A stretch of 32,000 bases of DNA from Bellilinea caldifistulae (GTDB taxonomy: Bacteria > Chloroflexota > Anaerolineae > Anaerolineales > Anaerolineaceae): the NCBI RefSeq assembly GCF_001306055.1, contig NZ_LGHJ01000010.1, positions 150,001 to 182,000 on the forward strand. The letters are read 5' to 3'. This document shows positions 2,851 to 32,000 of this stretch, piece by piece. The translations under genes were made by a program, and so were the position numbers. The notes beneath the pieces were generated by a model. That model did no database searches and was not told the origin of the DNA. It saw only the letters and a list, made by a program, of their open reading frames with translations. Each line of letters begins with the position of its first letter. Within the stretch, counting starts at the first letter, position 1.

Positions 2851-4740
2851 ATGAAAAATAAACCTAATATTCGAAATCGTTATGTTTTAATGGGCGATTT
2901 AGCGCTGATTGTCCTTTCGGTATTCGGTGCGCTGATTCTTCGTTTTGAATTGGGAAGCCTCTTTTTTGCTTACCTGCCGTTTGGTTACTGGATGATTGCT
3001 GTTGCGCTGGTCATCAAACCAATTGTATATTACTTGTTTGGTTTGTACCGGCGGATGTGGATGTATGCCAGTGTTGAGGAATTAAAACTTATCGTTATTG
3101 CCGTAACAACTGCTTCCATCATGGTAGCAGTGGTCATGCTGATTCTCTTCACCCGTGGTTTTCTACCAGGCTACCTGCGCTCGGTCTTTGTGATTGACTG
3201 GCTGCTTTCACTGGCGATGGTTGGAGGGTTGCGCTTCGCTTTTCGTTTTCTGGCGGAGACACGTCGCCGTTTTGGAGAGATGCAGGCTGGCAGGGTAAAA
3301 CGAGTCCTGATCGTAGGTGCTGGGGATGCAGGCGCTCTGGTGGTAAAGGAGTTGCAGAAGAATCCCCAGTTAAATCTGATCCCGGTTGGCTTTCTGGATG
3401 ATAACCCAACCAAACAAAAACAGCAGATTCACGGTGTGCCAGTTGTGGGCACCATCAATGATATGACGCGCTGGTTGGAAAAACTGCGGGTAGATGAGGT
3501 CATCATTGCGATACCCAGTGCGCCGGGGCGAGTAGTCAGGATGGTTGCCGATATTGCTCGCCTAAAGGGGATTCCTTTCCGCACCATGCCGGGAATTTAT
3601 GAATTGTTGGGTGGTAAGGTCAGTGTCAGCCGTTTAAGAGAGGTGGATATTACCGACCTGTTACGTCGCCAGCCAACCCGTATCAAAGAAGAATGGATTG
3701 GTGAAGTTTTAGCAGATAAAATCGTACTGGTGACGGGGGCTGGCGGTTCCATTGGGCGGGAATTGTGCCGGCAGATTGCGCGCTACAACCCGGCTGAGCT
3801 GATTATGCTGGGCCACGGAGAAAACAGTATTTTTGAAGGACTTTTGGAACTGAAAGACCACTTTCCAACACTGACGATTCGCCCGGTGATTGCCGATGTG
3901 CGCGATCGAATGCGGCTTAATCAGGTTTTCAGCCAGTATCATCCGCAAATTGTTTTCCATGCAGCGGCTCACAAACATGTCTCGTTGATGGAAGTCAATG
4001 TGGAAGAAGCCGTTACCAATAACATCCTTGGTACCAAAAATCTGGTGGATTTAGCCATCCAGCACCGCGTGGAACGGCTGGTGATGATTTCCTCGGATAA
4101 GGCAGTCCGTCCGGCGAATGTGATGGGCGCTACCAAGCGGGTGGCAGAGATGCTGGTGATTGACGCGGCTTTACGAACGGGAATGGCCTTTTCGGTTGTG
4201 CGTTTTGGAAATGTGTTGGGAAGCCGTGGCAGCGTTGTGCCGATTTTTAAGCAGCAAATTGCTCGCGGAGGGCCAGTCACTATCACCCACCCGGATATGA
4301 AGCGTTATTTCATGACCATCCCTGAAGCCGTTTATCTTGTTCTGCAGGCTGCCGGAATGAGTAAAGGTGCTGAAACCTTTGTGTTAAATATGGGACAACA
4401 GGTGCGTATTCTGGATCTGGCGGAAGATTTAATCCGTCTCTCCGGTCTGGAACCTGGAAAGGACATTGAAATTGTATTTACCGGTGTGCGGCCGGGGGAA
4501 AAGTTGAGCGAAGATCTGTGGGACGAGGGTTTTCAATTCCTCTCGACCGAACATCCCGATATCTTCCGTTCCCAAAACACCGAACCGCTCAGCAGTGAGC
4601 GGCTGGCCGAATTTGTGGATGAACTGGTCAATCTGGCCCGTGAAGGATCAAGCGAAGAGATTATTCACCTGCTCGATCAGTTTATTCCCGGAGCGGTTAT
4701 TCAAAGCACACCCCCACCGGAGATCACTTCAATTATCTGA
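2851..4740 (+). CDS. Membrane-anchored nucleotide-sugar 4,6-dehydratase/epimerase (CapD / PglF / WbpM-like polysaccharide biosynthesis protein)
   Basis: N-terminal TM helices; two Rossmann segments (VLIVGAGDAG and VLVTGAGGSIGRELCRQI); catalytic block SSDKAVRPANVMGATKRVAE characteristic of CapD/PglF-type enzymes. Confidence 0.88.
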   Translation: MKNKPNIRNRYVLMGDLALIVLSVFGALILRFELGSLFFAYLPFGYWMIAVALVIKPIVYYLFGLYRRMWMYASVEELKLIVIAVTTASIMVAVVMLILFTRGFLPGYLRSVFVIDWLLSLAMVGGLRFAFRFLAETRRRFGEMQAGRVKRVLIVGAGDAGALVVKELQKNPQLNLIPVGFLDDNPTKQKQQIHGVPVVGTINDMTRWLEKLRVDEVIIAIPSAPGRVVRMVADIARLKGIPFRTMPGIYELLGGKVSVSRLREVDITDLLRRQPTRIKEEWIGEVLADKIVLVTGAGGSIGRELCRQIARYNPAELIMLGHGENSIFEGLLELKDHFPTLTIRPVIADVRDRMRLNQVFSQYHPQIVFHAAAHKHVSLMEVNVEEAVTNNILGTKNLVDLAIQHRVERLVMISSDKAVRPANVMGATKRVAEMLVIDAALRTGMAFSVVRFGNVLGSRGSVVPIFKQQIARGGPVTITHPDMKRYFMTIPEAVYLVLQAAGMSKGAETFVLNMGQQVRILDLAEDLIRLSGLEPGKDIEIVFTGVRPGEKLSEDLWDEGFQFLSTEHPDIFRSQNTEPLSSERLAEFVDELVNLAREGSSEEIIHLLDQFIPGAVIQSTPPPEITSII

Positions 4741-6258: not shown

Positions 6259-7346
6259 ACCAGTGGAACGATTTGCTTCTTGACCTGCCAGCAGCTCACA
6301 TTTTACAAACCCGTCAATGGGCTGAGGTGAAGGCCAATTATGGCTGGACGCCTTACCCAAAAGTCTGGCGGGATGAGGCCGGTAAGGTCCAGGCGGCTGC
6401 GCTGATTCTGGAACGTAGCCTGCGATTGGGGTGGTTTACCGCGGGGCTGCGGGTGATGTATGTCCCGCGCGGCCCTTTGATGGATTGGAAGGACGAACTT
6501 TGGCGCACCCGGGTGATTAGCGACCTGGAGAAAATAGCCCGTCGGCGGGGCGCCATTTTTCTCAAAATAGATCCGGAGGTCGTCATTGGTAAGGGCATTC
6601 CCCAGACGGAAGATGCGCTGGAAGACTCGCTCGGACGAGGCGTGATGAATTGGCTCAGGCAGCGTCGGTGGCGTTTTTCCACAGAGCAAATTCAATTTCG
6701 CAATACGGTCTGGCTGGACTTAGCCGGTTCGGAGGAAGACTGGCTGGCGCGAATGAAGCAAAAGACCCGTTACAATTTGAGGCTGGCTCAGCGTAAAGGT
6801 GTGACGGTTAGACTGGGAAGTATTCAGGATTTGCCGCTGCTATATCGAATGTATGCTGAAACCTCCCTGCGGGATGGCTTTACGATTCGCAGCGAAGCTT
6901 ATTACCTGACGGTTTGGCAAAAATTTTTGGAAGCCGGCATGGCCGAAGTGCTGCTTGCGGAGGTTGAAGGAGAGGTAGTTGCCGGTCTGATATTGTTCTT
7001 CTTCGCTGGCCGGGCGTGGTATCTGTATGGAATGTCACGCAACCTCCATCGGGACAAGATGCCGAATTATCCTCTTCAATGGGAAGCAATGCGCCGAGCC
7101 AAAGCCCACGGCTGTCAGATTTACGATTTATGGGGTGCTCCGGATGAATTTATTGAACAGGATCGCATGTGGGGTGTGTTTCGTTTCAAGCAGGGTTTGG
7201 GCGGGGAGGTGATTCGCACGATTGGTGCCTGGGATTACCCGGCCCGACCGCTATTGTATGTGCTTTATATGCAAATTTTGCCTCGTTTGCTGGAATGGAT
7301 GCGCCAGCGTGGGCAGCAGCAGACTCGCAAGGAGGTTGGGGTATGA
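6249..7346 (+). CDS. FemAB-family peptidyltransferase-like protein (paralogue 2)
   Basis: ILQTRQWAEVK, MKQKTRYNLRLAQRK and WGVFRFKQGLGG parallel the motifs in 4740-5735. It overlaps the Nudix gene by 10 nt. Confidence 0.8.
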   Translation: MELDQWNDLLLDLPAAHILQTRQWAEVKANYGWTPYPKVWRDEAGKVQAAALILERSLRLGWFTAGLRVMYVPRGPLMDWKDELWRTRVISDLEKIARRRGAIFLKIDPEVVIGKGIPQTEDALEDSLGRGVMNWLRQRRWRFSTEQIQFRNTVWLDLAGSEEDWLARMKQKTRYNLRLAQRKGVTVRLGSIQDLPLLYRMYAETSLRDGFTIRSEAYYLTVWQKFLEAGMAEVLLAEVEGEVVAGLILFFFAGRAWYLYGMSRNLHRDKMPNYPLQWEAMRRAKAHGCQIYDLWGAPDEFIEQDRMWGVFRFKQGLGGEVIRTIGAWDYPARPLLYVLYMQILPRLLEWMRQRGQQQTRKEVGV

Positions 7347-24370: not shown

Positions 24371-24543
24371 GGTTCACTCCTTGAATTTCTACAATGATTA
24401 TTGATTTTGTAAGGTATTTTAATTGTATATCAATATTCCAGAAAGTGACAATAGTAATTTTACAGGTCGTAAAATATCTTAAGCGATTGTAAGGTGGAAG
24501 CAGGGGTGTTTTTGCGAAAATTCAAAGGAAATGATTAAAAATC

Positions 24544-24572
24544 TTGCCGATAATTCAAGGAGGAGGTATAAT
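24544..24572 (+). promoter_or_regulatory. Promoter of tRNA-Pro (TTGCCG - 17 nt - TATAAT)
   Basis: TTGCCG at 24544-24549 and TATAAT at 24567-24572 with a 17-nt spacer. The -10 element ends 10 nt before the mature tRNA 5' end. Confidence 0.6.
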
Positions 24573-24582
24573 GAGCGTCGTT

Positions 24583-24657
24583 CGGGGCGTGGCTCAGCCC
24601 GGTTAGAGTGCACGGTTCGGGTCCGTGAGGTCGGCGGTTCAAATCCGCCCGCCCCGA
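24583..24657 (+). tRNA. tRNA-Pro (anticodon CGG)
   Basis: Hand-folded cloverleaf. Acceptor CGGGGCG/CGCCCCG plus discriminator A; D arm GCTCAGCCCGGTTAGAG; anticodon stem CACGG/CCGTG with loop TTCGGGT; T arm GGCGG-TTCAAAT-CCGCC. CCA is not encoded. Confidence 0.9.
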
Positions 24658-24688
24658 CTTTCACAGGGATTCCATCCCTGTATTCCGC

Positions 24689-24726
24689 AACGCACCCGAT
24701 GGATCCCTGGGTGCGTTTTGTGTTTT
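24689..24726 (+). terminator. Intrinsic terminator downstream of tRNA-Pro
   Basis: Stem AACGCACCC (24689-24697) / GGGTGCGTT (24709-24717) followed by TTGTGTTTT. A second hairpin ACAGGGAT-tcc-ATCCCTGT lies at 24663-24681. Confidence 0.6.
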
Positions 24727-24743
24727 CAGCAGGAAGGTCAGGT

Positions 24744-25199
24744 ATGGTTACACTCCCCACATTTCTACCCGTTGTCGAAGCCGCCCGCAAGTACGGGCTG
24801 GATGAGACCCGCTTGCGCGCTCTGATTGAGAAAGGTAAAATCAGGGCTGGAGTGGTTGCGGGAGAAATGGTCGTGAGCGAGGATGAGGTCAGAGATCAAG
24901 CAGTTACTCGAAAAGAGGACTTACCCGAATATAAGAAGCACGCTCATCTGAAAGGGAAGCCGATTTGGATTAGCGAGGCGGAACGGAAATACGGGGTTCC
25001 TAATCCGACTGTCTCTGTTTGGGTAAAGCGGGGCTTAATTAAGGTACTGGGATACGAAAAAAACCGCAAACTAATTGATGAGGCAGACGTAGCTTATTGC
25101 GCCGAAATCTATAATCAGCGCAGAGGACAAGGCAAGTGGCTTTTTGATGATAACGGGCTACCTTATAAGCCAAAAACCGGCCCACTTGTTACAGCCTAG
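24744..25199 (+). CDS. Tandem helix-turn-helix (excisionase/MerR-like HTH) DNA-binding protein
   Basis: Two internal copies of one pattern: VVEAARKYGLDETRLRALIEKGKIRAG and ISEAERKYGVPNPTVSVWVKRGLIKVLG. AGGAAGG RBS at 24731-24737. The ORF-track start at 24531 runs through the tRNA and its terminator, so the start was trimmed to ATG 24744. Confidence 0.6.
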   Translation: MVTLPTFLPVVEAARKYGLDETRLRALIEKGKIRAGVVAGEMVVSEDEVRDQAVTRKEDLPEYKKHAHLKGKPIWISEAERKYGVPNPTVSVWVKRGLIKVLGYEKNRKLIDEADVAYCAEIYNQRRGQGKWLFDDNGLPYKPKTGPLVTA

Positions 25200-25205
25200 A
25201 AAAGC

Positions 25206-25240
25206 AAAAAACGGCACAAAACCGTTTTTTTTTTTTTTTT
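25206..25240 (+). terminator. Intrinsic terminator with 16-nt T tract
   Basis: Stem AAAAAACGG (25206-25214) / CCGTTTTTT (25222-25230), with the T run continuing to 25240. It lies immediately after the stop of the HTH gene. Confidence 0.75.
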
Positions 25241-25251
25241 GTTTTAAAATC

Positions 25252-25283
25252 TCTAGAAGTTATTGAAAACTTCTAGATATAAT
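25252..25283 (+). promoter_or_regulatory. Perfect 9-bp inverted repeat abutting a consensus -10 box (candidate promoter/operator for the downstream non-coding region)
   Basis: TCTAGAAGT (25252-25260) and ACTTCTAGA (25269-25277), followed directly by TATAAT (25278-25283). The T16 tract upstream could act as an UP-like element. The -35 region is weak (TAGAAG at 18-nt spacing). Confidence 0.45.
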
Positions 25284-25289
25284 GTTATA

Positions 25290-26094
25290 CTCCTCCTAGC
25301 ACTTTTCCAAACCAGCGTCCCGCTGAATGCCTCAAACACAACGCCCCGCCGGGCGTTGTGCGCCCGACCGGGGCGTTCCGTGAGCCGTGCGGTAACACGC
25401 TCACGGTTGAGGCAAGCAGACCGTGACTGCTCACCCCATCCGCGATTGTAGCATGAGATGACAGCCCTCTGCAAGCCTCTCACAAGGAATGTGATTTGCG
25501 GAGGGCTTTGTGTTTGCCGTGCGGTGTTGGCTCAAGGCCTTTCAGGCGGCAGGTGCTTGAGGGCGGGTTCAAGTCCCGCCCGCCTGAACTCCGTTTTTGC
25601 CACGCTAACTTCGGCCGTGTAGGGAGGCGTGGAGCGGGGCTGAGTCATCAGCACCCGGCGGGGCAAGGGACGGGGAGCCCTCGCCTGACGGAGCGGCAGG
25701 TGAGACCATCGGAAGCCTGCCGGGGGACGTGACAGCCGGGAGAGACCGGCAAGCACCTTGACAAGCGACATGGTAATCCTCTGTTTCCAACCGCCATAGA
25801 CGGGCAGGATGATCCCTGATCTTGCGGTGGGTGCAAGTCCCACCCGGTTGGACTGCCAAACCTGTCGGTGTCGTTGCACCATCAACGGACAGGTGCAGCC
25901 CGGCACACCCTAACCAGTGTCGGGAAACAGGCAGGGTGACGGCCCGGAGAGACGGGAATACTTCCCTGCCTGCAATGGTGGGGGGCAGCCCGGAGAGACG
26001 GGCAGAGGGGTTGGGGCTGAATCAGCCCAGCGAAGGCGAGGCAGACCCTCAAAGAGCCGGACTTGCGCGAGGGCAATCCCTCTCACTTGATCAA
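25290..26094 (+). ncRNA. Candidate large (about 0.8 kb) highly structured non-coding RNA, class unknown (GOLLD/ROOL-like context)
   Basis: No credible ORF: only short overlapping Arg/Pro/Gly-rich ORFs in several frames, none with an RBS. Many nested perfect helices are readable by eye. (1) GCCTCAA 25329-35 / TTGAGGC 25407-13 encloses three hairpins (25337-60, 25361-75, 25378-406). (2) A 12-bp helix 25463-74 / 25496-507 encloses TCACA-aggaa-TGTGA. (3) Others: 25541-88, 25600-05/25627-32, 25639-52, 25695-700/25716-21, 25826-44, 25861-66/25888-93, 25928-36/25964-72, 26069-82. The ends are approximate. Confidence 0.6.
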
Positions 26095-26166
26095 GCGGGA
26101 GTAGCTCAACGGTAGAGCGGCGGCGTCATGAGCCGCAGGGTGAGGGTTCAAATCCTACTTCCCGTT
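26095..26166 (+). tRNA. Non-canonical tRNA-like element, anticodon CAT (Met/Ile2 type); possibly a pseudo-tRNA or processing signal
   Basis: Cloverleaf by hand. Acceptor GCGGGAG/TTCCCGT has G1-T72 and G7-T66 wobbles. D arm GCTC-AACGGTA-GAGC. Anticodon stem GCGGC/GCCGC with loop GTCATGA (G at position 32 is unusual). T arm GAGGG-TTCAAAT-CCTAC has an A-A mismatch. No CCA is encoded. Confidence 0.5.
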
Positions 26167-26186
26167 CTGTGAAAACGAGGTTTCTC

Positions 26187-26291
26187 ATGTGTGAGCATCG
26201 AAGGAAAGTTGGCGACAATTACGGACTGACCTGTCTGGACTGCGGCAATGAGATGAGCACGGCTGAAACCCCATTTACTCTTCACCAATAG
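26187..26291 (+). CDS. Small (34 aa) Cys-containing hypothetical peptide (possible half zinc-ribbon)
   Basis: ATG 26187 lies 6 nt after ACGAGG. Translation MCEHRRKVGDNYGLTCLDCGNEMSTAETPFTLHQ. The stop is 3 nt before the TTG start of the next ORF, which has no RBS of its own, suggesting coupling. Too short for a confident call. Confidence 0.3.
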   Translation: MCEHRRKVGDNYGLTCLDCGNEMSTAETPFTLHQ

Positions 26292-27389: not shown

Positions 27390-27674
27390 ATGCTGGTTCG
27401 TACACAAGTATTGTTTGACGAAGATACGCTGCGGAAACTGAAAGCCGCTGCCGAGGAACAGGGGCGCAGTGTTTCCGACCTGGTACGGCAACTGGTGGAA
27501 AGCGGGCTAGAACACCAGCGCCAGCAGGAATTACAGCAGTTTGAAGCATTGCTGGGCAAACTGCGCCAGATTCGGGAAGAAAACGCGGCTAAGTATGGTG
27601 AGGTGGAGACTGACCTGTTGGAGAAAGTGCGCGAAGAACGCAGCCGGGAACTGGGAGAATTGTTATGGGGTTGA
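27390..27674 (+). CDS. vapB: Ribbon-helix-helix antitoxin (VapB/CopG-like)
   Basis: The N-terminus MLVRTQVLFDEDTLRKLKAAAEEQGRSVSDLVRQLVE has the RHH pattern (beta strand, helix, helix). It overlaps the downstream PIN gene by 10 nt. AAAGGAAAGG RBS. Confidence 0.8.
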   Translation: MLVRTQVLFDEDTLRKLKAAAEEQGRSVSDLVRQLVESGLEHQRQQELQQFEALLGKLRQIREENAAKYGEVETDLLEKVREERSRELGELLWG

Positions 27675-28099
27675 TCGTCTTGGATGCCAGTGTGGTTGTG
27701 CCGTTGATGATGCCTCATCCGTTGTCTCAGGCAGCGGAGCGGTGGATTCGCCACTGGAAACGGGAGTATTACCGGTTGGTTTCGCCGTGTTTCATGCCGG
27801 TGGAGGCGGTTTCTGTTTTACGGCAAGTGGTGTACGGCGGAAGATTCAATCCGCAGCAAGCGTTGGAAGCGGTGGACATCCTTATGGCGCTAGGGATTGA
27901 ACTGGTTATGCCGGACGGTGAGGTGTTACAATCCTCGCTGCGCTGGGCGGAGCGGTTAGGACAGAGCAAAGCCTACGATGCCCAGTATGTGGCTCTGGCG
28001 GAGCAGTGCGGAGCGGAGTTGTGGAGCGCAGACCAGCGGCTGGTCAACACCCTGCAAGCACAGGGAGCAGGTTGGGCGCATTGGATTGGGGAGGTGTGA
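27665..28099 (+). CDS. vapC: PIN-domain toxin (VapC-like ribonuclease)
   Basis: LIVLDASVVV (first acidic residue), ...PVEAVSVL, ...AYDAQYVALAE, ...LWSADQRL give the conserved D/E/D/D spacing of PIN domains. The gene is paired with an upstream RHH gene. Confidence 0.82.
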   Translation: MGLIVLDASVVVPLMMPHPLSQAAERWIRHWKREYYRLVSPCFMPVEAVSVLRQVVYGGRFNPQQALEAVDILMALGIELVMPDGEVLQSSLRWAERLGQSKAYDAQYVALAEQCGAELWSADQRLVNTLQAQGAGWAHWIGEV

Positions 28100-31999: not shown

Positions 32000-32000
32000 C

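Follow-up and report, generated by a model that had tools for sequence, protein, structure and literature searches.

A conserved structured non-coding region ahead of ssb operons in Anaerolineae elements, tentatively read as a long leader with tRNA mimics

Introduction

What is specified by the gene-poor interval at 25290-26094 of a 32,000-nt stretch of the Bellilinea caldifistulae genome (contig NZ_LGHJ01000010.1, positions 150,001 to 182,000; the whole stretch is called the window here and all positions are counted from its first letter)? A first-pass annotation, made from the letters alone, proposed that the interval encodes one large ornate non-coding RNA of about 0.85 kb, followed by a tRNA-like element and leading a life similar to that of the GOLLD and ROOL RNAs. 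We find that the region is non-coding, that it is conserved in Anaerolineae with helices that covary, and that the RNA is a new family, absent from Rfam. Our preferred reading, held tentatively and at somewhat short of an even chance, makes the region a long structured 5' leader or precursor RNA, itself non-coding, of an early, ssb-containing operon in integrative plasmid-like elements of Anaerolineae.

Results

A non-coding RNA family confined to Anaerolineae

The longest open reading frames (ORFs) within 25290-26094 comprise 124 aa on the minus strand and 97 aa on the plus strand, and none of the ORFs in this interval matches Pfam. When the region is compared with four full-length homologues, 11 of 78 indel runs are divisible by three, the substitutions per codon phase (248/242/250) show no periodicity, and the longest ORFs switch frame and strand from one homologue to another. 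A hidden or frameshifted protein-coding gene, which the presence of ORFs of up to 124 aa on both strands might suggest, is thus effectively refuted, and the view of the first-pass annotation that the region is ORF-free and non-coding is borne out, with none of the codon-periodic conservation that a hidden gene would leave. Its description as G+C-rich and densely folded holds as well: the G+C content at 25601-26000 is 0.647, compared to about 0.45-0.60 elsewhere in the window, and the minimum free energy z-score against shuffled sequence is -6.1 for the plus strand and -5.9 for the minus strand.

Searches of the window with Rfam 15, at the gathering score and at E ≤ 10, found the flanking tRNAs and left the region unmatched; the group-II-D1D4-4 match in the E ≤ 10 search (11.9 bits, E 6.8) is at chance level only. 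A search of seven homologous loci at E ≤ 0.5 returned tRNAs only. The models for GOLLD, ROOL, OLE, HEARO, raiA, RNase P, tmRNA, group I and II introns, T-box and EAR gave no membership (for tmRNA also by ARAGORN), and no description of the RNA was found in literature searches. Since nothing in Rfam matches the RNA, it is a new family, in keeping with the earlier suggestion that it fitted no known consensus and might be a new class.

We identified 84 copies with the core motif, all of them from Anaerolineae genomes or metagenomes. The region was recovered by nhmmer downstream of a helix-turn-helix (HTH) gene in more than 25 genomic loci, and an exact-pattern scan of metagenome contigs, using the most conserved hairpin (CCGTGAGCCGTG, 4-10 nt, CACGCTCACGG), added 63 further loci. 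The HTH gene is the constant upstream partner of the RNA region: among metagenome loci found by the pattern only, it is upstream and co-oriented in all 46 that have enough sequence, and of the 24 that extend far enough, 21 have ssb downstream in the same orientation. Without exception, the region runs from a promoter into protein genes on the same strand (Zn-ribbon, nucleotidyltransferase, ssb). Copies differ by gains, losses and duplications of its later modules, and the constant features are a repressible-looking promoter, a first domain with a terminator-like hairpin, usually the tRNA mimic TLS1 and, eventually, the same-strand ssb operon. In the shortest leader, that of locus L109, the core is followed by TLS1, a module B stub and a single GAGAGA hairpin, and then directly by the ribosome-binding site and start codon of ssb, only about 290 nt from the core.

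A conserved promoter leads into a four-way junction and a terminator-like hairpin

The local order is tRNA-Pro, HTH gene, terminator, sigma-70 promoter, non-coding region, tRNA-Met and a small Zn-ribbon ORF (Table 1). The promoter is followed by the AGCAC start (TAGCACYTTYCCAA) in 76 of 78 copies and is conserved in alignments A2 and A6; the predicted transcription start is placed by its distance from the -10 box. This -10 box is the TATACT at 25286-91, and the TATAAT box at 25278-83, which the first-pass annotation had noted ahead of the region, is not the conserved element. The arms of the palindrome that is centred on the -35 box change jointly between elements with the -35 box itself unchanged, even between the window copy and its ~96%-identical paralogue L145. 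The palindrome of L145 lies at about 6510-6540 and that of L007 has 15 bp (4492-4527). Judged by this pattern, the palindrome looks like an element-specific operator, for which the adjacent HTH protein is a candidate binder.

Domain 1 (25297-25517) contains a four-way junction formed by P1 to P4 and three further hairpins, P5 to P7. Covariation was assessed in 54 non-redundant sequences, with slid 3' partners and 500 shuffles as controls. The proposed helices pair in 91.8% of cells, compared to 34-45% with slid partners, and 21 pairs are changed on both sides, compared to 10.3 ± 1.8 in the shuffles, of which none of the 500 reaches 21. This covariation is located in P1, P6, P7 and the minihelix of TLS1. 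In P1 four of the first five pairs show changes on both sides, and insertions are tolerated after its 5' strand. The stems of P2 to P4 are invariant apart from an A-U to G-C swap in P2 of L009. The invariance of P4, which has a bulged C at 25386, is partly built into the search pattern; in 19 loci retrieved through the HTH protein P4 is also invariant but for one base. Loop sequences vary freely in P2, P4 and P5, and in P2 (4-8 nt) and P4 so does loop length. One P6 pair is G-C in 33 sequences and A-U in 8, and about half of the sequences have a C-A mismatch in P6.

The strongest covariation in domain 1 is found in P7, where columns 232/277 are CG in 29 and AU in 13 sequences, columns 233/276 are AU in 34 and CG in 12, and columns 235/274 are CG in 44 and UA in 7. 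The U-rich tract after P7 is UUUGUGUUUG or UUUUUGUUUAG in the sequences of alignment A4, and a terminator scan flags the site homologous to P7 in L146. Because a covarying G+C-rich stem stands directly before a U-rich tract, P7 looks like an intrinsic terminator, and it has the sequence characteristics of a predicted Rho-independent terminator. A conserved junction lies upstream of this putative terminator. A riboswitch or transcription attenuator would in addition have mutually exclusive terminator and antiterminator pairings; the sole candidate for an alternative pairing is weak and is not consistently conserved. That candidate, an antiterminator in which the 5' strand of P2 pairs with the 3' strand of P7 and the U-tract behind it, reaches -17.3 kcal/mol in the window, is weak family-wide and was rejected.

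Two tRNA mimics and further covarying modules follow

TLS1 is present in 60 of 76 copies. It has an acceptor-like stem of 9 bp and a canonical T arm whose stem covaries (GC in 25 sequences, AU in 21), and it is without D and anticodon arms. The Rfam mascRNA model matches it weakly (21.5 bits, E 0.15), below every family threshold. TLS2 is cloverleaf-like, without a D stem and with a non-canonical T loop, whose motif is found in 42 of 45 long copies. Its acceptor stem has a pair that is G-C in 15 and A-U in 6 sequences, its T arm a pair that is U-A in 13 and C-G in 6, and its anticodon-like arm covaries as well, occurring as CAGGA/UCYUG, GAGCG/CGCUU and GGGCG/CGCCC. Neither element is called as a tRNA by the Rfam tRNA model or by ARAGORN, and by model and geometry both are mimics and not tRNAs. 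In a subgroup made up of L035 (4780-4830), L090, L091, L097, L113 and L123 an insertion replaces the anticodon-like arm of TLS2; this insertion bears a canonical T-arm hairpin of its own (GGUGGGUUCGAGUCCCACC), which forms a tandem with the regular one.

Between the two mimics lies module B, which is optional. It is present in 15 of 45 long copies and absent in L007, L012, L039, L087, L094 and L146. Across 14 sequences 15 of its 43 pairs are compensatory, with an RNAalifold covariation term of -4.24; the closing helix of the window copy contains a mismatch found in no other sequence. Domain 2 comprises GAGAGA hairpin 1, the linker with the repeated 5'-end motif, TLS2, Hc, Hd, the invariant AAACAGGCAGGGUGAC and GAGAGA hairpin 2. 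In this domain, analysed in 21 sequences, 91.3% of cells are paired, compared to 30-46% with slid partners, and 16 pairs are changed on both sides, a value reached in 3 of 500 shuffles. The first hairpin of the 3' tail also covaries, being GGGUUGG/CCAACCC in L002. G-U cells exceed A-C cells by 41:11 in domain 2, and for module B the ratio is 41:5; this excess favours the plus strand as the RNA strand. A long-range helix by which RNAalifold would close domain 2 (GU..CCU with GGG..AC) shows one-sided changes only and was left out.

Most of the helices drawn in the first-pass annotation are recovered with support from covariation. The junction at 25329-25413 is conserved, with compensatory changes in P1 and almost no variation in P2 to P4; the helix at 25463-74/25496-507 corresponds to P7, with its strong covariation and U-rich tract, the minihelix at 25541-88 to TLS1 and the T-loop hairpin at 25826-44 to the T arm of TLS2. 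The helix at 25928-36/25964-72 fared differently, as it exists in the window but its 3' strand lies in a 46-nt duplication private to the window copy and is missing from nearly all homologues. Its 5' strand is part of the near-invariant AAACAGGCAGGGUGAC, for which no conserved pairing partner was identified in the alignments; the proposed pairing of the invariant AACAGGCAGGGUGAC with CCCUGCCUG is not conserved and was dropped. The same duplication created the third of the three GAGAGA hairpins (25988-26003), all of which are present in the window as described, homologues usually having one or two. The tRNA-like cloverleaf noted directly 3' of the region proved to be a genuine tRNA-Met(CAT) gene.

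The motif AGCACCUU(N)CCAA stands at the predicted transcript start (25297-25310) and again at the start of domain 2 (25752-25764). The second occurrence is followed on its 3' side by a CCUCC(UUU) stretch resembling the 16S rRNA 3' end, which in L047 is UCACCUCCUUUC. In L109 the motif AGCACCUUACCAA lies just upstream of the ssb ribosome-binding site.

Table 1 Features in and around the non-coding region, in window coordinates
Feature	Position	Strand	Parts and basis
tRNA-Pro(CGG) gene	24583-24658	+	chromosomal gene adjoining the insertion; ARAGORN and Rfam
Double HTH_17 gene (excisionase/MerR-like), BECAL_01352	24744-25199	+	151 aa; Pfam and PHROGs
Predicted intrinsic terminator of the HTH gene	25206-25245	+	hairpin 25206-25230, then long T run; terminator scan
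Palindrome, candidate operator	25249-25280		arms 25249-61/25268-80, centred on the -35 box; inverted repeat I8
Predicted sigma-70-type promoter	25263-25291	+	TTGAAA 25263-68, 17-nt spacer, TATACT 25286-91, extended -10 TG; promoter scan
Predicted transcript 5' end (conserved TAGCACYTTYCCAA) and variable single-stranded spacer	25297-25328	+	alignment A4
Four-way junction	25329-25413	+	P1 25329-35/25407-13, P2 25337-46/25351-60, P3 25361-65/25371-75, P4 25378-89/25396-406
P5 hairpin	25415-25431	+	AGCAG/CTGCT, variable 6-7-nt loop
P6 hairpin	25435-25457	+	CYCRU.../...AYGAG; loop motif UGUAGCA/UAUAYCA conserved
P7, intrinsic-terminator-like	25463-25517	+	12-bp hairpin 25463-74/25496-507 with inner hairpin, then UUUGUGUUUG
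Conserved linker GCGGUGUUGGCUCA	25521-25534	+	alignment A4
TLS1 minihelix	25541-25588	+	acceptor-like stem 25541-49/25580-88, 11-nt GG linker, T arm 25563-67/25575-79, loop UUCAAGU
Optional module B	25589-25734	+	closing helix 25608-12/25726-30; hairpins 25635-43/25648-57, 25659-69/25678-90, 25694-701/25715-22
GAGAGA-loop hairpin 1	25735-25750	+	GCCGG-GAGAGA-CCGGC
Linker repeating the 5'-end motif (AGCACCUUGACAA)	25752-25785	+	with CCUC(C/U) anti-Shine-Dalgarno-like motif; alignment A5
TLS2, cloverleaf-like tRNA mimic, 67 nt	25786-25852	+	acceptor 25786-93/25845-52; anticodon-like arm 25805-10/25819-24 (loop with conserved UCCC); T arm 25826-31/25839-44 (loop UGCAAGU)
Two-part hairpin Hc	25860-25894	+	outer 25860-66/25888-94, inner 25872-76/25883-87; five compensatory pairs
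Hairpin Hd	25899-25924	+	25899-906/25917-24; loop takes 35-45-nt insertion in some homologues
Near-invariant AAACAGGCAGGGUGAC	25925-25941	+	alignment A5; 32 of 45 long copies
GAGAGA-loop hairpin 2	25942-25957	+	CCCG-GAGAGA-CGGG
Window-specific tandem duplication, 46 nt	25958-26003	+	direct repeat D1, 46-nt spacing; absent from L014 and L145
3' tail	26004-26094	+	hairpins 26014-28 (GGGCUG-AAU-CAGCCC) and 26069-82 (GAGGG-CAAU-CCCUC); common to L014, L011 and L002
tRNA-Met(CAT) gene	26095-26167	+	co-oriented with the RNA; RF00005 53.9 bits, ARAGORN
Zn-ribbon gene remnant, first protein gene	26187-26291	+	tblastn; first ~20 codons match the 69-aa gene of intact copies

The region sits at the left end of an integrative element

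Three copies are found in B. caldifistulae, namely that of the window, L145 (~3.20 Mb) and L146 (~3.67 Mb), the latter two on DF967971.1. Intact copies of the element run on beyond the RNA into a Zn-ribbon gene, sometimes a pol-beta-like nucleotidyltransferase gene, ssb, several unknown genes and ParA-like genes. The gene sets of L145 and L146 are intact, with Zn-ribbon, SSB and ParA-like proteins in both and the nucleotidyltransferase additionally in L145, where a tyrosine integrase gene is divergent from the HTH gene. As clues to the type of element, PHROGs, NCBIfam and Pfam gave for the neighbouring proteins only SSB, the pol-beta-like nucleotidyltransferase, ParA-like proteins, the integrase and RHH/PIN proteins.

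The HTH protein family is confined to Anaerolineae, with several paralogues per genome. Through it we retrieved 80 genomic loci and scanned 36 of them for upstream tRNA genes. In 24 of these 36 a tRNA gene ends at most about 600 nt before the HTH gene, and its identity varies (Pro, Arg, Lys, Met, Gln, Cys, Val, Asn or Gly). We conclude that this is the left end of an integrative element with tRNA genes as its targets. No second tRNA-Pro 3' end (attR), which would mark the right end of the element, was found in the window at up to three mismatches. Closely related elements, whose HTH proteins are 60-80% identical, adjoin differing tRNA genes about 50-600 nt upstream of the HTH gene (L002-L081), a sign that the integration site has often changed.

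None of the ten proteins tested from downstream in the element matched a PHROG family, blastn of the RNA against phages and plasmids gave no match, and exact-pattern scans of viral contigs were likewise negative. Since neither the proteins nor any viral, phage or plasmid record matches, the element looks plasmid-like or like an integrative and conjugative element (ICE), with its integrase, ParA and SSB, rather than phage-like. Of the GOLLD- and ROOL-like lifestyle that the first-pass annotation envisaged, the location in accessory DNA with adjoining tRNA genes stands; the element does not look like a prophage, no phage signature having been seen among the proteins tested.

Distant members of the HTH family keep a promoter-like region without the RNA core (L005, L008, L017, L020, L026, L028, L033, L042, L048, L049, L055 and L061-L081). 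In L017 an ORF of 1120 aa occupies the position of the core.

Operon leader or free-standing RNA

From these sequences, the most likely role of the region would be that of a leader with an attenuation checkpoint and tRNA-like processing signals. Transcription would begin at the conserved sigma-70 promoter, whose -35 box lies in the element-specific palindrome, probably a repressor operator. The first ~220 nt are predicted to fold into the near-invariant four-way junction and two hairpins and to end in the intrinsic-terminator-like P7, and domain 1 together with P7 would probably be a checkpoint, acting by attenuation or by cis-acting antitermination, that decides whether RNA polymerase enters the downstream genes. 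Read-through would yield an RNA with both tRNA mimics, joined in some of the copies by the genuine tRNA-Met, and RNase P and RNase Z would probably cut at these. Such cuts would separate the leader, the structured modules (module B, the GAGAGA hairpins, Hc and Hd) and the mRNA from each other. We favour this modular leader or precursor over a single globular RNA because the region has an internal terminator-like hairpin, variable modules and constant same-strand protein genes downstream. On the same grounds the original proposal of one ornate RNA of ~0.85 kb is not supported in that form: the terminator-like hairpin closes the first ~220 nt, module content varies, and the promoter leads into protein genes.

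Several observations weigh against a leader of this kind. The search for an antiterminator that could replace P7 gave none that is convincing and conserved; the candidate pairing between P2 (5' strand) and P7 (3' strand with U-tract) averages -11.3 kcal/mol, only slightly better than the -9.1 kcal/mol of shuffled sequences (mean z -0.83). The stems of P2 to P5 are conserved in sequence without covariation and, being almost invariant, are uninformative on pairing; such conservation might stem from recognition at the DNA level. The A-C cells of domain 1 exceed its G-U cells by 116:75, an excess mostly attributable to the recurrent C-A mismatch of P6 and to misaligned P1 columns. The stacked acceptor and T helices of TLS1 and TLS2 amount to 13-14 bp, compared to 12 bp in tRNA, and module B and domain 2 have more covarying structure than a simple leader requires.

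With no conserved antiterminator at hand and module B and domain 2 so elaborate, we keep as a serious rival, though a rather unlikely one, a free-standing large ornate RNA of a new GOLLD/ROOL-like class that would act in trans as a scaffold, cage, sponge or tRNA decoy and whose operon context would be incidental. Several independently closed and covarying multi-helix domains, a size of 0.5-0.9 kb, and a location in mobile DNA with tRNA genes and mimics flanking or inside are what such an RNA would show, and GOLLD too divides into conserved and variable parts and can have tRNAs in its linker (PMC12286853). The repeated hairpin loops containing GGA and the CCUCC motifs could also bind proteins or ribosomes. 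However, the GOLLD, ROOL, OLE and raiA models remain unmatched even at E ≤ 10, the terminator-like hairpin divides the region, module content is highly variable and falls to the ~290 nt of L109, and the region is always co-oriented with and abuts the first gene. It is possible, though we would not count on it, that the RNA is a new large multi-domain class with a function of its own, in which the junction is a sensor or the processed mimics and modules act in trans. The sensor may be a riboswitch or an antiterminator that binds RNA polymerase and couples a cellular signal to induction of the element; the trans-acting products may be tRNA decoys, sponges for proteins or ribosomes, or parts of an RNA assembly.

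The hairpins might instead act as DNA, as a single-strand origin, a primosome site, a single-strand promoter, an oriT or protein-binding repeats near ssb. Hairpins that proteins recognize typically have invariant stems and variable loops, as P2 to P5 do, the two strands do not differ in how well they fold, ssb lies 3' of the region in a plasmid-like element, and the A-C excess of domain 1 points the same way. Conjugative plasmids reportedly have non-coding single-strand promoters in a leading region that also bears ssb. We nevertheless regard a DNA role as improbable, since a conserved double-strand sigma-70 promoter is correctly positioned upstream, the covarying terminator-like hairpin with its U-tract, the T-loop motifs and the real tRNA gene share one strand, and G-U cells far outnumber A-C cells in domain 2 and module B; moreover, multi-branch and tRNA-shaped folds are not known from ssi or Frpo elements. 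More improbable still is a decaying tRNA-gene array made of functionless relics of element-borne tRNA genes. The series of two tRNA-shaped elements and a tRNA-Met would suit it, as would the decay of the window copy described below, but dozens of divergent elements have kept both mimics, with covariation, and the four-way junction, module B and Hc/Hd, which are not tRNA-like, are nonetheless conserved and covarying (P2 to P4 near-invariant). We also considered an IS110-type guide or bridge RNA and rejected it: the longest words shared between each RNA and its own tRNA/attL measure 8-13 nt, no longer than those shared with non-cognate sites (mean 8.9, maximum 13).

Relation to known systems

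The closest systems in lifestyle are GOLLD and ROOL. These, too, are large multi-domain RNAs supported by covariation, of unknown function, carried by mobile DNA and often located beside tRNAs (PMC12286853, PMC5737381), and one GOLLD RNA was originally recognized 3' of a Met-tRNA (PMC12286853). The region described here differs from them in that no covariance model matches it, its host element is plasmid- or ICE-like and not phage-like, it has an internal terminator-like hairpin and continuity with downstream protein genes, and it is found in Anaerolineae only.

The favoured reading, a leader, can be compared with RNAs at the heads of mobile-element operons. One of them is put of phage HK022, reportedly a leader antiterminator RNA, to which we liken the leader of the region. 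The cATT of pLS20 is a 456-nt leader attenuator that heads a conjugative-element operon (bioRxiv 10.1101/2025.11.24.689506), and canT of Tn916 is a cis-acting RNA antiterminator at the start of such an operon (PMC11658703). With cATT and canT the region, if read as a leader, shares a long structured non-coding stretch just 3' of the main promoter and a predicted intrinsic terminator that would need read-through. In contrast, nothing that corresponds to the four-way junction, to the tRNA mimics or to the extra closed domains appears in the descriptions compared of cATT, canT and put, and the region shows no clearly conserved antiterminator pairing, whether of the 'zipper' type or another. For the promoter, the establishment genes of plasmid p576 (Reg576), found through an anti-restriction gene, are under repressor-controlled promoters (PMC6294495); in both cases the promoter of an early or establishment operon overlaps with a repeat or palindrome that is an operator or, here, a candidate operator, and the operon here includes ssb. 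The p576 genes lack a long structured leader, and here the adjacent HTH protein is only a candidate repressor.

TLS1 resembles mascRNA, the 3' end of MALAT1, in consisting of an acceptor stem and a T arm without an anticodon arm within a longer transcript, which for TLS1 is a predicted one. tRNA-like elements such as mascRNA are cut by RNase P and RNase Z, which defines RNA ends, and the tRNA-like domain of tmRNA and the RNase P-processed CI RNA of phage P4 belong to the same set for comparison. The resemblance of the mimics to RNase P and RNase Z substrates lies in shape alone, that is, in acceptor and T arm and a conserved GG linker. They differ from mascRNA and tRNA in the longer stacked helix already mentioned and in the T loop of TLS2, which is UGCAAGU and not UUCRANY.

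If this account is correct, the region represents an undescribed family of large structured RNAs from an understudied phylum, with 84 or more copies and as many as three in one genome. Such a family would bring together a near-invariant, promoter-proximal junction with a terminator, two conserved tRNA mimics and further closed, covarying domains ahead of the ssb operon of a mobile element, a combination not seen in the systems compared. It would then offer a tractable case for the gating of early genes by integrative elements outside the model phyla, for tRNA-shaped punctuation in the processing of bacterial mobile-element transcripts, and for the purpose of large ornate RNAs beside tRNA genes.

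Neighbouring genes, assembly and the state of the window copy

The protein encoded at 24744-25199 is identical to BECAL_01352 (also P0001), the locus of which lies on DF967971.1 in assembly GCA_001050215.2. A mechanically derived ORF of 222 aa (24531-25199) crosses tRNA-Pro; the true start is at 24744, which gives 151 aa and matches the database protein. In that assembly the 436 nt at 25436-25871 of the window correspond to a scaffold gap of 1105 N (L001 10693-11797), and the window must accordingly derive from a second assembly that has this gap closed. The gap-closing sequence aligns throughout with the gap-free paralogue L145 and with the Thermanaerothrix solaris orthologue L014 while keeping differences of its own, and this combination makes it credible. 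Contigs end within or shortly past the region in 27 of 79 HTH loci and in 25 of 63 pattern loci. We attribute the scaffold gap and these breaks to the region being a multi-copy repeat that disrupts short-read assemblies; in practice, it breaks Anaerolineae assemblies and accounts for the gap in the reference genome.

In promoter and RNA the window copy is ~96% identical to its intact paralogue L145. The tRNA-Met gene is also present in L002, L014, L034 and L145, and its T stem (window 26140-26160) is mismatched in the window (GAGGG/CCTAC) and fully paired in L145 (GAAGG/CCTTC) and L014 (GAGGG/CCCTC). The start of the Zn-ribbon protein, MCEHR.KVGDNYGLTCLDCG, is conserved in L007 and L039; the window element breaks off ~20 codons into this gene, and the DNA beyond is unrelated to the intact copies. 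With its truncated Zn-ribbon gene, the mismatches in the tRNA-Met T stem and in module B and the private 46-nt duplication, the window copy looks like a decaying relic. Downstream of the Zn-ribbon remnant, up to position 32000, the window contains a TPR-like ORF of 105 aa, an RHH-PIN toxin-antitoxin pair (27390-28099) and unknown ORFs.

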